This document shows, piece after piece, positions 2,159-7,394 of a stretch of DNA of 7,744 nucleotides. The stretch lies in the IMG/VR virus record IMGVR_UViG_2660237951_000006; one strand, written 5' to 3'. The first letter of the stretch is position 1; each line of letters begins with the position of its first letter. The stretch is from a virus. Taxonomy: Duplodnaviria > Heunggongvirae > Uroviricota > Caudoviricetes. The translations under genes were made by a program, and so were the position numbers. The notes under the pieces were generated by a model. That model was given only the letters and a program-made list of their open reading frames with translations, was not told the origin of the DNA and did no database searches.

Positions 2159-3377
2159 TGGCGTTATCCTTCTGCTTACCGGCTTTACTGCCATCGGAGG
2201 GTTTCGTGGTCATGTTCATCGGTGTGAGATAGACATCACCACCGGGACGCGGATTCATATCTTCCAGGTCGCGGCAGTCATTGGGAGAGTAAATTCCCCA
2301 GTTAATCCCGGTGGCGTAGGCTTCAAAACGGGACTTCATATCCCCGCGCAGTAACGCCCCGGCGTTAAATTTGGCGTAATAAACGCCCTGCTTACTTTTT
2401 CGTACCAGTCCGGTGTTGATCCGCTGTTCGATGCGGGTCAGATACGGCACCAGTGAATAGTTGATAAATCCCAGCCCCAGCTCTTCGATATTGTTGAAGG
2501 TGGCGCGATCGGTGTTCTGCACCATGTGCAACGGCACCCGGAACAGACGACAGATTTCTTCAAGCTGAAACTTGCGGGTTTCCAGGAACTGGCTGTCCTC
2601 GGCGTTCAGCGCCATCGACTTCCAGTCCAGCCCCATCTCAAGGATCATCGGGCGGTGAGCATTGCCAAGCCCGGTGTGACGCTCCTCAAAATCTTTCTTC
2701 AGGCGCTCATAAGCCTGATCTGACAGCGTCTGCTCTGTACGCAACACACCCGACGTCACCGCGCCATTGCTGAACAGTCTGGCCCCGTGCTCTTCGGTCG
2801 CAGCTGCCAGCGATATTGCCTCGCGGGCATAGGCGATGGGATTCAGCCCCACCAGTCCGTCCAGCGTCAGCGTGCGCACATGCCAGATATCCTCCTGGCT
2901 CAGTACATCCGTGGAGCCATCCGGGAATGTGACCTGATAGATCGGCTCCCAGCTACTGTTAAGCTTCGGTACCACACAGCCGGGATCGACGGGCAGCAGT
3001 TCAGCCACTTCGCCAAATGCTTTCACTTTGTAGGCGTAAAAGTTTCCCCGCAGGCACAGACAGGTGACCACCAGCTCCCAGAACTCCTGCGGCGTCATAT
3101 AGCCATTGGGATGCGTGGAGATCAGTTTATGCAGACGTTCGCCGGTGGCTCTCTGCTTCAGGCTGCCGTTCAGGTGATACAGATTGCAGGGCAACATCCC
3201 GACCGACTCTGCCAGCACTCTGACGCAGGAAAAAACCGCCGTCAGTCGCATGGCCCGCTGACTGCTGATCTGCTTTCCGGTATAGGTGTCGTAGGACAAC
3301 CCGATGGCATCCGCCAGCTCTGCTGGCGTGGTCACCGGTGCGTCACTTTTTCGTTGAAATAATCCCGAAAAGAACAC
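2136..3377 (-). CDS. Portal protein, HK97 family
   Basis: 413-aa ORF directly downstream of the terminase large subunit. GTG start at 3377 is preceded by a strong GGAGG 6 nt upstream. The start overlaps the stop of the upstream mini-ORF (TAGTG). Confidence 0.9.
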   Translation of the reverse strand: MFFSGLFQRKSDAPVTTPAELADAIGLSYDTYTGKQISSQRAMRLTAVFSCVRVLAESVGMLPCNLYHLNGSLKQRATGERLHKLISTHPNGYMTPQEFWELVVTCLCLRGNFYAYKVKAFGEVAELLPVDPGCVVPKLNSSWEPIYQVTFPDGSTDVLSQEDIWHVRTLTLDGLVGLNPIAYAREAISLAAATEEHGARLFSNGAVTSGVLRTEQTLSDQAYERLKKDFEERHTGLGNAHRPMILEMGLDWKSMALNAEDSQFLETRKFQLEEICRLFRVPLHMVQNTDRATFNNIEELGLGFINYSLVPYLTRIEQRINTGLVRKSKQGVYYAKFNAGALLRGDMKSRFEAYATGINWGIYSPNDCRDLEDMNPRPGGDVYLTPMNMTTKPSDGSKAGKQKDNANADETTS

Positions 3378-3559
3378 TATTTACCTCCACCAACAGACAG
3401 CTGTGTACGGTCGAGATATCGCGCTACCAGCCACGACCAGAACAGGCACAACGCCCCGGCAACAACAAACCCCGCCGGGGGATAAATCAGCCAGGCACCA
3501 TACGCCAGCAAAAGCGCCCCCAGCACGCCCACCAGAGGCGCGAGAATCAGCATGATCAT
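3377..3559 (-). CDS. Small hydrophobic protein (60 aa) with two predicted transmembrane helices, inserted between terminase large subunit and portal
   Basis: ATG at 3559 with a GAGGT Shine-Dalgarno 5 nt upstream that overlaps the terminase stop. Its TAG stop overlaps the portal GTG start. Sequence [49 protein letters not shown] gives two hydrophobic segments separated by a PP turn, then a short polar tail. Confidence 0.55.
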
Positions 3560-3570
3560 AATTACCTCAG

Positions 3571-5304
3571 TTAAAGCGAGCGGATCCCATAGGACTCAAT
3601 GTGGTCAGACAGCGTGTCTTCTTTCTCGTACAGCATGGCTCTGCCAACCGCCATAATCAGCGCAACTGCACCGTCAATTTTGTTTTCCGCCTGCTCTTTG
3701 ACGGGTTTCACCACATCATCGTTACCCGGAATGGTTTTGCCGACCACATTGCCGATACACCAGGTCATGATGGGATTGCCATCATGATGAAAGCGCCCCG
3801 ATTCAATTGCCGCTTCCAGCTCTTTCATCGGGTCGGACATGTTGGTGTAGTTCTGAATGATAGTGACGGGATTCAGGTCTTCATCAGCAAGGTCATGTGA
3901 CAACCCGGTCGCCCCGAAGGGGTCGATGGGTGACTCACTGACCGGGCTGATTTTGTTCGCCGCTTTGGCCTCCTCGAGGATGTAGCGATAATCCACCTCC
4001 GCACCATCGGTAACGGTCAGAACGCCCATTTCCACCCATTTCTGAAAGCGTTCGGCTGTCCGGCGATCTTCATTTTTCTCGACGCTGTACACCGTGTCAT
4101 ACGGTACCCAGAAGCGCGGAGCCACACTGTAGTAATGCGTTTTACCGTCAATCTCGCGGGTATAAAGTCGCGCCATGCTGTTCATATCCAGCTTACGCGC
4201 CAGGTCAAAGGCCAGAATGCACGGTTGCCCCTCGAACTGCTCAAGGGTCAGTGATTTATCCTCGCAGCTCTGCCAGCTCACCAGGTTGAAATACGCCGAA
4301 CGCGCCGACACCCAGATATTGAGGTGTTTTGTTTTAAAGACGTTTGCCAGACGGGCGTTATTTTTCGCACGCTGCTGCTGACTTAACAAAAATTCGCGAT
4401 AAACCGACACGCCAATATTCGGGTTAGCTTTTTCCAGCACCTGCGGGTCGGTCCAGTCATCACCTTCATCAACGGTATAGATGATCCCGAACAGTTCATC
4501 GTTGGGCACCGAGCCGTTGAGCATCTCGATGACTTCCCGCCGCTTGTCGTAGCACGGCCCCTCAATGTTGTACCCGGCAGTAGTAATGGCCCACATCAGT
4601 GGCTGACGTCGCGCCCCCATCCCGGTAAGCATCGTGGTGTAAAGCGCATCGGTGGCGTGCTCGTGATATTCATCCACCACCGCACAGTGGGGTGATGAAC
4701 CATCACCGGGGTTACCGATCAGCGGTTCAAACCGCGCGCCATCCTCCGGACGATTCATGTTTGAGGCGTTAACCTCAATCCCGAACGCTTCCGTCAGCAT
4801 GGGTGTGCGTTTACACATCAGTCGCGCCGGGCGAAAGACTTCCCACGCCTGTTTCTCTGTCGTGGCACCGGAATACACTTCCGCGCCAAACTCGTTATCA
4901 CAGGCAAAACAATACAGGGCAACACCGGCAGAGATTGCCGATTTGCCGTTCTTACGGGGGATTTCGGTATACACCTCCCGGAAGCGGCGCAGCCGGGACC
5001 CTTTATTGACCCAGCCAAACGCACAGCAGACCACAAATAGCTGCCACGGCTCCAGCGTGATGGGCATCCTCTTGAATGCCCACTCACCCTTGGTGTGCGG
5101 CAACAGCTGAATAAATTTGGCGGCCCGTTCAGCCAGGTCCTTGTCGAAGCGGTAACGAAACGACTTACTTTTTTCCGCCATCAGGTCATCAAGATGGCGC
5201 TGGCAGGCCTGAATCACAAACTGGCAGGCCACAATCTTTCCGCGCACAACATCACGGGCATACTGATTGGCAGCATTTACGTTGGGGTAAGATTTCCGGC
5301 TCAT
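3571..5304 (-). CDS. Terminase large subunit (ATPase/nuclease)
   Basis: 577-aa ORF. Walker A-like GKS motif ([11 protein letters not shown]) and Walker B-like VVDEYHE in the N-terminal half. The ATG start overlaps the small-subunit stop (ATGA) at 5301-5304. Confidence 0.92.
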
Positions 5305-5795
5305 GACTCGATGATTTTCAGAAACGGGTTAGTGGCTTTCTTCTGCCCCGCCAGGCCAATCAGACGCTGGCGGCTGCTGGGGTCGAGTCCGAGCATTGCC
5401 CCCGTGCTGCTCATCTCGGACTCCTGTTCTTTTTTGGCGGTCAGCTCCGGATTTTTGACCCTGCCGCCCATTGCACCGGTGATGGTGTTGCCCTGTATGG
5501 CAATATTTTTCACGGCACGTCGCCAGAACTCATAGGCCACGCACCACCGCTCAAGCACCGCGAGGTCAGTCACGCACAACAGGCCATGACCGCAGAGTTC
5601 TTTGGTTGTCAGTTGCCACATGATCGTGGCGAGAGGGAGATCTTCTTCAGCGAACCACTCTGGTGGCTCAACACCTTTGATGGGCGTAAAAACAGGTTCA
5701 TCTTTGTTCAGGGCTCGCTTGCCGGGGTTTCCGGCCAGCGCCTTGCGCGCCGTTGGCTTGGGGCGACGCCCGGAACGCCCCGCCGTTCCAGCCAT
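5301..5795 (-). CDS. Terminase small subunit (P27 / HK97 gp1-like)
   Basis: About 164 aa, basic N-terminus, immediately upstream of and overlapping the large subunit. Start placed at ATG 5795, which has AGGAG 8 nt upstream. The track's GTG at 5804 has no properly spaced Shine-Dalgarno. Confidence 0.8.
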
Positions 5796-5845
5796 ATGCG
5801 GCACTCCTGGTTAAATTTCATTTTTCGCGGGTATAAAAAAACGAT

Positions 5846-5894
5846 GGGGCGGGCAGTCCGGAAGACGCCAGGTCACAGGGATTTGACCCGCCCC
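5846..5894. repeat. GC-rich inverted repeat GGGGCGGG (5846-5853) / CCCGCCCC (5887-5894) separated by 33 nt, in the HNH-terminase intergenic region
   Basis: Read directly from the sequence. On the minus-strand transcript the structure is followed by AUCGUUUUUUUAUA. It lies where the cos site is expected in HK97-like genomes. Confidence 0.4.
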
Positions 5895-5920
5895 TCCCCT
5901 CAGACAGTTGAGAATTATTA

Positions 5921-6271
5921 TCACTTTAGCCGTTCACGGGCCGTCTTCGCCTTATGGCACGGCCAGCACAGGCTCTGCAGATTGCTGTCGGCATCTGTGC
6001 CGCCATGCGCTTTAGGAATGATGTGGTCAACGGTTTTCGCCTCACGTACCACACCACCACGCAGACATAACTGACACAGTCCTTTGTCACGCTTGAGCAC
6101 ACGTTCACGGATAACATCCCATTTCGAACCATAACCGCGCTGGTGTCTGGACTGGCCCGGCTTGTATTGCTTCCAGCCTTCACTTTTGTGGCTTTCGCAA
6201 TAGCCTGACGGGTCAGTTGTGGTATGGCGGCAGCCGCGAACACTGCAGGCTTTTGGGGTTCGTGGCGGCAT
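5921..6271 (-). CDS. HNH endonuclease (packaging-associated, HK97 gp74-like)
   Basis: 116-aa ORF with a zinc-binding Cys cluster (CSVRGC...C) and HNH core DHIIPKAHGGTDADSNLQSLCWPCHKAKT. It sits directly upstream of the terminase small subunit, as in HK97-like phages. Confidence 0.88.
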   Translation of the reverse strand: MPPRTPKACSVRGCRHTTTDPSGYCESHKSEGWKQYKPGQSRHQRGYGSKWDVIRERVLKRDKGLCQLCLRGGVVREAKTVDHIIPKAHGGTDADSNLQSLCWPCHKAKTARERLK

Positions 6272-6570
6272 ATGTACTAATCTCCGATTTATCCAAATTT
6301 CACTGCCATAATGCCGACATTCTCTGCCATTATTGGCTCCGTTTATCCGTTAAAAGGGATATCAGTTAAGTTATCCCGTGTAGGGTATAAGCCATTGTCG
6401 AGACCACTCATTGAATGGCCTCTGCAATAACCGATGTCTTTCCATCAGTCCGCCACCACAAAGAATCTTTTTTGCCATAAGGCAGGAGGTTCATCTTTCA
6501 GTGGCTGCCAGTGTTATTTCCCCACTTACTGGCTTGGGTTGCTTCGTGGTACTGCCGTAACTGGTGGTGC

Positions 6571-6590
6571 ACAGATTTAGTTAAATCTGT
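6571..6590. repeat. 20-bp near-perfect palindrome ACAGATTTA-GT-TAAATCTGT (9-bp arms, 2-bp spacer)
   Basis: Read directly: left arm 6571-6579, right arm 6582-6590, exact reverse complements. It lies inside the ~410-bp ORF-free stretch. Confidence 0.5.
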
Positions 6591-6681
6591 TCTCGCCTGA
6601 ACTATCTTTTACATACCCGGATTGTGGGGTGTAAATCACGGTTTCATTATCAAGCCCACCCGTAGATGTGCTTTGGAATGG

Positions 6682-6882
6682 CTACTGGCGGTCATTATGC
6701 TCGTAACGAGATACCGTCTTCCCGTTCTGGTTCATCACGTAGGCGACCTCGCCAGGTTTCAGGAATACATTTTTGTCCATTCCCGATACCGCGATGCTCT
6801 GCTGCCCCGGATTGAACCCTACACTCAACCCGCAATGAATCTCTTCACCGCCACCTGGCGACATTACTTTTACTGTTAACAT
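6682..6882 (-). CDS. Hypothetical small protein (66 aa) between the lysis cassette and the HNH gene; possible moron
   Basis: ATG at 6882 with GGAG 7 nt upstream and a TAG stop at 6682-6684. Same strand as the surrounding operon. No family recognised. An 85-aa plus-strand ORF overlaps it in antisense and was judged less likely. Confidence 0.45.
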   Translation of the reverse strand: MLTVKVMSPGGGEEIHCGLSVGFNPGQQSIAVSGMDKNVFLKPGEVAYVMNQNGKTVSRYEHNDRQ

Positions 6883-6906
6883 GCTTCTTCTCCTGCTTCT
6901 TCTGGG

Positions 6907-6934
6907 AATAAAAAAGCCCGACCGAAGTCAGGCT
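6907..6934 (-). terminator. Rho-independent terminator at the end of the lysis cassette
   Basis: On the minus-strand RNA: 8-bp stem AGCCUGAC/GUCGGGCU (one G-U wobble) with a UUCG tetraloop, then UUUUUUAUU. It starts 19 nt after the Rz stop. The plus-strand version has a C-A mismatch and no trailing U-run, so it is strand-specific. Confidence 0.65.
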
Positions 6935-6953
6935 CTGTTATTTGGGTGACGAA

Positions 6954-7394
6954 TCACTTAAGACACTGCTCTTTGATGTATTCCTGCAAATATCCAACCT
7001 GTTTCGTCACTGTGACGATTCGCTCTCTGAGGGTGAAATAATCCCGTTCAGCGGAGTCAGTAAGTCGGGGGCCGGTAACATCGCCCAGGCCGCCGGTGCT
7101 GGTCGTTCCGTTCGCGGGACAGTTTGCGTTGAGCTGCAGCCGCTTACGGCCAGCAGAAACATCAGCACGGAGACTTTCGATAGTAGCGTTAGCATCAGCA
7201 AGCTCCTTTGTGTATCTGGCGTCGAGTTCTGCTACATCACGTTGACGCTTCTGCATGTCAGCGATTGTGGATGCGGCTTTATCGCGCTGTTCTTTGTAGG
7301 CGATGGCGTTATCACGGTAATGATTAACAGCCCATGACAGGCAGACGATGATGCAGATAACCAGAGCGGAGATAATCGCGGTTACTCTGCTCAT
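6954..7394 (-). CDS. Rz: Rz inner-membrane spanin (i-spanin), lambda Rz-like
   Basis: 146-aa ORF with an N-terminal transmembrane segment ([23 protein letters not shown]) and a coiled-coil periplasmic domain. The N-terminus and the [10 protein letters not shown] motif match my recollection of lambda Rz. The ATG overlaps the endolysin stop (ATGA). Confidence 0.9.
7007..7201 (-). CDS. Rz1: Rz1 outer-membrane lipoprotein spanin (o-spanin), embedded in the +1 frame of Rz
   Basis: ORF lies entirely inside Rz in another frame. Signal peptide with lipobox LAVSGC, a proline-rich mature part, and the C-terminal motif [11 protein letters not shown] shared with lambda Rz1. The true start may be a downstream Met. 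Confidence 0.85.

Follow-up and report, generated by a model that had tools for sequence, protein, structure and literature searches.

The DNA between an HNH endonuclease gene and the small-terminase gene terS, which in this window (the whole 7744-nt stretch of DNA analysed) carries a conspicuous GC inverted repeat beside an A/T tract, raises the question of whether it serves as a packaging site, as an RNA element, or as both. A preliminary description had offered a candidate cos site and, instead or in addition, a terminator or an RNA structure preceding the terminase genes. We conclude with high confidence that positions 5811–5927 of the window are the cos site of a temperate phage or prophage of the SfV/SfI/phiP27 type carrying an HK97-like packaging module, a cos site being the place at which replicated DNA is divided into genome lengths as it is packaged.

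All genes of the window are carried by the minus strand. Along this strand, Rz (6954–7394) is followed by the HNH endonuclease gene (5921–6271; Pfam HNH PF01844, E = 2.2e-16), which encodes the terminase accessory nuclease and is the last gene before cos, by terS (5301–5795), which encodes a small terminase of the P27 family (Pfam Terminase_4, E = 5.8e-20), and by terL (3571–5304), which encodes the large terminase with its ATPase and nuclease (Pfam TerL_ATPase and TerL_nuclease). A 60-aa open reading frame without a Pfam match (3377–3559) separates terL from the portal gene, and genes for a prohead protease and an HK97-fold capsid protein are also present. The HNH protein, TerS, TerL, portal, protease and capsid are all full-length with strong Pfam matches, and the two flanking genes named in the preliminary description, HNH and terS, are thereby confirmed at their places. 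The Shine-Dalgarno sequence of terS, AGGAG, lies at 5804–5808 (minus strand), and the terS ATG is located 50 nt 3′ of the inferred cut (ATG at +51), a start that agrees with that of SfI terS (positions 51–545 of the SfI record). The HNH protein shares 38% identity with HK97 gp74 over 65 aa (E = 3e-10), while TerL shares 27% identity with HK97 gp2 over 462 aa (E = 2e-29) and is the enzyme expected to cut at 5846–5855. The gene order is that of HK97/P27-type cos sites, with the region lying between the terminal HNH gene and terS, upstream of an HK97-type terL.

Farther upstream, the window holds about 680 nt between Rz and the HNH gene (6272–6953), whereas in SfV the HNH gene follows directly after Rz1. 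A segment of about 360 nt (6321–6688) is 95–98% identical to the HK620 hkbM/hkbL (DUF2560) region and to phages JEP4, Louie and HK106, and 6272–6953 looks like a mosaic insert beside cos. Directly after Rz, at 6913–6936 on the minus strand, there is a canonical terminator-like hairpin with a 10-bp stem, a 4-nt loop and a T-run, which overlaps a sub-threshold Rfam match to isrJ (6912–6982, minus strand; 27.2 bits against a gathering cutoff of 37, E = 0.015), the only Rfam hit in 5600–7000.

The identification of the site rests on its cohesive end. The element is already known, its cut site having been mapped in 2013 in Shigella phage SfI. Specifically, the SfI virion termini were sequenced from free-particle DNA with outward primers in HNH and terS, revealing a 10-nt gap relative to the prophage, TGCCCGCCCC, from which cos-type packaging was concluded (PMC3636060). 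The same cos is attributed to SfI, SfII, SfIV and SfV in the SfIV paper (PMC3851460), and the cos of SfV itself is called 'postulated' in the SfI paper (PMC3636060). Consistent with the mapped gap, the SfI record ends in ggactgcccgcccc (in full, ccggactgcccgcccc) and starts with gtcgttttttt, while the gene strand of the window reads ccggacTGCCCGCCCC up to the cut and atcgttttttt after it. The cohesive end of the window (the cosN equivalent), 5′-TGCCCGCCCC-3′ at 5846–5855 on the minus strand, matches the mapped SfI virion end at 10 of 10 positions and the annotated cos of phage phiP27 at 9 of 10. Because the SfI decamer recurs unchanged at 5855..5846, the terS-proximal arm of the inverted repeat (5846–5853) is the cohesive end itself, the arm plus two bases. 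The cos reading proposed for the DNA between HNH and terS is thus supported by a mapped end and by a homologous cos in phiP27, and the identification is correct.

The cleavage geometry can be placed on the window by the same comparison. Since run-off reads from both SfI ends left a gap and not an overlap, the 5′ ends would be recessed and the overhangs 3′; we infer this polarity from the 'gap' wording and from HK97, the SfI paper itself being silent on it. The nicks would accordingly fall at 5846/5845 on the gene strand and at 5855/5856 on the plus strand, leaving 10-nt 3′ overhangs. Two further records touch on this position. One is that of Burkholderia phage vB_PR1, considered because it might supply independently mapped ends from a relative; it begins 2 nt into the T-tract block and proved uninformative, because its right end falls within the HNH gene. 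The Pantoea AH07 record breaks about 2 nt or less from the homologous cut position, which is a record break only.

The closest phages share nearly the whole region with the window. In a megablast search against phage genomes, terS, the intergenic region and HNH are 93–98% identical to Shigella phages SfI, SfII, SfIV and SfV, and equally to Escherichia phages vB_EcoM-720R4 and SKA5 and Salmonella phage 118970_sal3. The linear records of SfI, SfV and SfIV begin and end inside this intergenic region. Within the SfI group, the 10-nt cohesive end and the distance to the terS ATG are identical to those of the window, as are the G-rich box upstream of the cut (G-box), the T7 tract and the ACCCGCGAAAAAT block downstream of it. 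The differences in this region include the first base after the cut, which is A in the window and SfV and G in SfI, spacer substitutions, with ccctgtgacctggcgtct in the window versus ctctgtgacctgacgtct in SfI and SfV, and a few others near the HNH stop codon.

A more distant comparison is provided by the Stx2e phage phiP27 (NC_003356), in which a misc_feature annotated as the cos site, CGCCCGCCCC, occupies the homologous position, 44 nt before terS. The order HNH, cos, P27-family terS is the same, as are the G-box, GGGGAGGGGCGGGTCAAATCC, and the perfect 8-bp repeat, and the downstream block reads TTTTTACACCCGCGAAATTAAAAATTT. In contrast, TerS of phiP27 is only 47–48% identical to that of the window and the spacer sequence is different. 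The arrangement is not shared by every carrier of a related terS: in Vibrio phage VaK, the HNH gene (annotated 'holin') and a P27-type terS of 49% identity are only 6 nt apart (335–1174), leaving no intergenic cos of this kind, so that its packaging site must lie elsewhere.

The inverted repeat that first drew attention to the region is present where it had been described. Its 8-nt arms, GGGGCGGG at 5846–5853 and CCCGCCCC at 5887–5894, are 100% complementary and separated by a 33-nt spacer, and the A/T tract beside it is an A7 run on the plus strand at 5835–5841, that is, T7 on the gene strand. The 7744-nt window contains two copies of GGGGCGGG, both in this repeat and in opposite orientation, with none elsewhere on either strand; shuffled windows contain a mean of 0.47 copies, and two or more copies anywhere occur in 18 of 200 shuffles. 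Nearby, a second inverted pair, GGGGCG/CGCCCC, and a 22-nt imperfect inverted repeat are found at 5762–5783 (also 5721–5742). Both lie within the opening 25 codons of terS, the part coding for an Arg/Gly-rich N-terminal arm, and they could be either a coding coincidence or further terminase-binding DNA.

The comparative analysis used an alignment of 87 distinct cos regions, 86 of them with a P27-type terS, plus HK97. The sequences were drawn from the terS-upstream regions of moderately diverged phages and from 80 loci in bacterial genomes, taken at one genome per species. These bacterial loci were found with a TerS alignment, encode TerS proteins 48–99% identical to that of the window, and include Shigella, Citrobacter, Xenorhabdus, Morganella, Yersinia, Kosakonia, Pseudomonas, Comamonas and Caballeronia. 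Across the 87 regions, blocks at fixed spacing emerge: a palindrome, the G-box, a GAC..C-rich cut site, a T-tract and a near-invariant ACCCGCGAAA.

Reading along the gene strand, the first block is a degenerate palindrome, AAAGTGATAATAATTCTCAAC, at 5907–5927 (minus strand), with the consensus AAATGAGA-nnn-ATTCTCATC; its columns are moderately conserved in the 87-sequence alignment, and it overlaps the HNH stop codon (5921–5923). The second is the G-box, GGGGAGGGGCGGGTCAAATC, at 5880–5899 (minus strand), which contains the HNH-proximal repeat arm (5887–5894) and has high information across the 87 relatives, all of which retain a 12-mer with 9–11 G. In 72 of the 87, the G-box stands 55–56 nt from the CCGCG anchor, the full range being 52–59. 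A spacer (5859–5879, minus strand) that is variable in sequence, with low column information, and almost constant in length then leads to the cut site at 5846–5858 (minus strand), which is composed of GAC(C/T)GC and the C-rich cohesive end. A TCAAATC segment follows the G-box and, compared by eye with the IHF consensus WATCAANNNNTTR, gives only a partial match.

Downstream of the cut lie the T7 tract (5835–5841, minus strand; +5..+11 from the cut), where a T-run is kept in relatives with a P27-type terS at an information of 8–9 of 9, and ATACCCGCGAAAAATGAAATTTAA at 5811–5834 (minus strand), which from its conservation and position is the probable TerS recognition site (the cosB equivalent). 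The core of the latter, ACCCGCGAAA at 5823–5832 (+14..+23, minus strand), is the most conserved stretch of the region and is nearly invariant in the 87 relatives, from Enterobacterales to Pseudomonas. The slightly longer ACCCGCGAAAAA at +14..+25 is likewise nearly invariant and resembles the HK97 TerS site by sequence. Within the 5811–5834 block are also an A5 run (5821–5825, minus strand) and AAATTT (5813–5818, minus strand). The A/T tracts form part of this conserved downstream block, which occupies the place of the mapped HK97 small-terminase binding site, a point that, like the identity of the repeat arm with the cohesive end, the preliminary description had not made.

This alignment bears directly on the reading of the repeat as an RNA hairpin, in which a fold in the late minus-strand transcript, together with the U7 run, would form an intrinsic terminator, or a structure with a regulatory role, before the terminase genes are reached. 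The preliminary description had spoken of a large stem-loop followed by U7. The stem does appear, with eight G:C pairs, in the predicted minimum-free-energy fold, and a U7 run does lie downstream, but the loop is 33 nt long and the U-run begins 4 nt (AUCG) past the stem, as against the short loop and immediate U-run of intrinsic terminators. The fold is also not unusual, with z = −1.08 and 27 of 200 shuffles as good, and the whole 130 nt give z = +0.15. A terminator scan leaves the repeat uncalled while it calls the canonical hairpin after Rz (6936–6913), and Rfam 15 yields no match within 5796–5930 at E ≤ 1.

Covariation gives the same picture. Only 8 of the 87 sequences keep the eight pairs complete, namely SfI, SfV, phiP27 and five others, which are near-identical to the window in this region; most sequences retain three to five in-register pairs, the central C:G is Watson-Crick in 21 of 87, and no compensatory changes occur in the 87 relatives. 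The longest complementary run between G-box and cut site averages 4.90 nt when both come from their own locus and 4.85 nt when they are permuted among loci (2000 permutations, P = 0.31). The T-run, the 'U7' of the earlier account, is kept as part of the downstream block with or without the stem, its conservation in the relatives with a P27-type terS being independent of whether an upstream stem can form. Expression of terS and terL in lambdoid phages must, in addition, rely on a single Q-antiterminated late transcript, which crosses cos. With the shuffled folds, the terminator scan, Rfam and covariation all negative, the terminator or RNA-structure reading can hardly be credited.

The same comparisons address a second possibility, that the inverted repeat works through its DNA symmetry, the cut being defined by a pair of dimer half-sites or by a cruciform. 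In favour of this, the SfV/P27 subgroup has a perfect repeat, the spacing of the two boxes is fixed, and a complementary core of 4–5 bp is kept in most relatives, for example GGCGG/CCGCC or GAGGG/CCCTC. This residual complementarity is nevertheless that of any G-rich and C-rich box, since permuted pairs score alike, and cutting takes place in one arm only. Furthermore, the G-box stays GGGGAGGGGCGGG where the cohesive end becomes GACCGCCGCC (Kp4885-3, Xenorhabdus), and in HK97 a run of G8–10 stands opposite CCGCCGCCAAA. Because the arms do not change together, we reject functional half-sites along with a functional hairpin and regard a symmetry element as very improbable. The best explanation of the perfect 8-bp repeat is chance within one lineage, in which a conserved G-box and a C-rich cohesive end are complementary by coincidence.

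With the hairpin and symmetry readings set aside, the blocks themselves can be considered as parts of a cos site. Of the four fixed-spacing blocks, the downstream one alone changes with the small-terminase family. In particular, loci with an HK97-type TerS (61 distinct upstream sequences) keep the palindrome, here AAATGAGAATGAATCGCATC, the G-box and GACCGCCGCC, but have TTTAACGCTAACCCGATTTTTT in the place of CCGCGAAA. The reverse combination occurs in Kosakonia and Leclercia, where upstream DNA of the HK97 kind is joined to the CCGCGAAA block and a P27-type TerS. It is chiefly on this natural exchange of modules that the assignment of the downstream block to TerS is based; the upstream blocks would then go with the shared parts, namely TerL, the HNH protein or a host factor. 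An extra upstream palindrome, GTGAAATCATTTCAAATGCAA, is present in HK97-type loci and also in loci with a P27-type TerS and CCGCGAAA (Kosakonia, Pseudescherichia and Leclercia), which are natural recombinants of cos and terS type.

ACCCGCGAAA is thus the probable TerS site, an assignment made from its position, its conservation and the 5 nt in which it resembles the HK97 site. The DNA contacts seen by cryo-EM in HK97 gp1 (Arg7 and Arg128) were considered for transfer to the TerS of the window and were set aside, as BLASTP and hhalign found no homology between the two proteins; transfer from HK97 therefore goes by position and DNA motif only. HK97 gp1 falls in no Pfam family.

Modules of both types, HK97 and P27, contain the G-box and the palindrome, in hosts that range from Enterobacterales to Pseudomonas and Burkholderiales. 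The two elements keep a set distance (55–56 bp) from the TerS site and stay in place where TerS and that site have been exchanged. We tentatively consider them uncharacterised cos subsites, candidate recognition or termination signals for TerL or HNH in the manner of lambda cosQ, a proposal that is possible but somewhat short of an even chance. A search of the literature for the block sequences returned nothing relevant, and no description of the G-box or palindrome was found in the literature searched, which covers little of the older work on HK97, SfV and phiP27. This upstream multi-block architecture is the only piece of the element that is possibly new.

These observations are consistent with a packaging mechanism in which TerS, TerL and the HNH protein would recognise concatemeric DNA at this site and introduce staggered nicks flanking TGCCCGCCCC (5855..5846, gene strand), giving virion DNA with 10-nt 3′ cohesive ends and a left genome end on the terS side. 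TerS would most likely bind ACCCGCGAAA and the A/T-tract block, 14–35 bp downstream of the cut, and this binding would bring TerL and HNH into place to initiate. When a packaging run ends, the TerS-bound block could act as a stop signal at which the motor is stalled, as in the HK97 model. The G-box and palindrome, 30–80 bp upstream of the cut, would then be extra subsites met by the incoming motor just before cutting, and TerL, HNH or a host factor would probably recognise them as termination proceeds.

The distribution of the site raises the further question of whether this copy is still in use. A segment of 156 nt around the site is present in 1156 of 5426 complete E. coli genomes, with nearly all copies chromosomal, and the window itself is probably chromosomal. 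The element may sit in a defective prophage, as many such prophages are, and the site could be a dead relic, a cos left behind in a decayed prophage that has lost the ability to package. Against this, every conserved block is intact and so is the exact cohesive-end decamer, the genes for HNH, TerS, TerL, portal, protease and capsid are full-length, and TerS is 100% identical to copies on IMG/VR viral contigs of 16–35 kb (among the matches listed). A scan of IMG/VR with TerS confirmed at least 591 stretches, with all relatives at least 98% identical among the matches listed. We consider a relic unlikely and infer cos activity of this particular copy from its sequence; the relic question concerns the activity of the site and not its identity as cos.

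The element is hence the expected packaging site of a very common enterobacterial prophage family. For annotation, this means that the genome ends of the family can be placed to the base, at 5846–5855, and that, of the two arms of a conspicuous GC inverted repeat, one is no more than a cohesive end. The four-block comparative picture is a modest by-product, which could be tested by HK97 packaging biochemists.

HK97 is one of the closest known systems. Its cos ends are 10-nt 3′ overhangs (PMC11331095; Figure 1 legend of PMC9410871), although a length of 12 nt is given in the Discussion of PMC9410871, and its gp74 HNH protein stimulates cos cleavage by terminase (PMC9410871, PMC11331095). The minimal HK97 TerS site is a 15-bp sequence at +15..+29, CTAACCCGATTTTTT, in which the G:C at position 21 is essential and the deformability of an A-tract is required (PMC11331095). 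The HK97 record ends in GACCGCCGCCAAA (in full, GGGGGGGGATCAAATCttcaaaacctttgccccaaatGACCGCCGCCAAA) and starts with GTTTGAATTT (GTTTGAATTTAACGCTAACCCGATTTTTTTAG), with the terS ATG at +50; the window reads GACTGCCCGCCCC up to the cut and ATCG after it (GGGGCGGGTCAAATCcctgtgacctggcgtcttccgGACTGCCCGCCCC and ATCGTTTTTTTATACCCGCGAAAAATG, respectively), with the terS ATG at +51. The comparison with HK97 cos that the preliminary description had called for therefore places the cut in the same register, after GAC(C/T)GCC and about 50 nt before terS in both.

The two sites also share the order of HNH, cos and terS, an upstream palindrome, a G-box with TCAAATC 41 nt upstream of the cut (the HK97 G-box being GGGGGGGGATCAAATC), and ACCCG with an A/T tract downstream of it. 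They differ in the cohesive end, which is CGCCGCCAAA in HK97, and in the downstream block, where CTAACCCGATTTTTT at +15..+29 in HK97 stands against ACCCGCGAAA at +14..+23 in the window. HK97 furthermore has a longer spacer between HNH and cos, lacks the 8-bp inverted repeat, and encodes a TerS without homology to that of the window detectable by BLASTP or hhalign.

The lambda site is more remote. Lambda has 12-nt 5′ overhangs, an unrelated TerS (gpNu1) with R-sites, and an IHF site; to our knowledge, it has no HNH partner and bears no sequence similarity to this region. PMC4669245 describes lambda cos as tripartite, with an upstream element (cosQ), a nick site (cosN) and a downstream TerS-binding region (cosB) beside the terminase genes. 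This tripartite logic is common to lambda and the window, hinting, by analogy, that the G-box may be the counterpart of cosQ.
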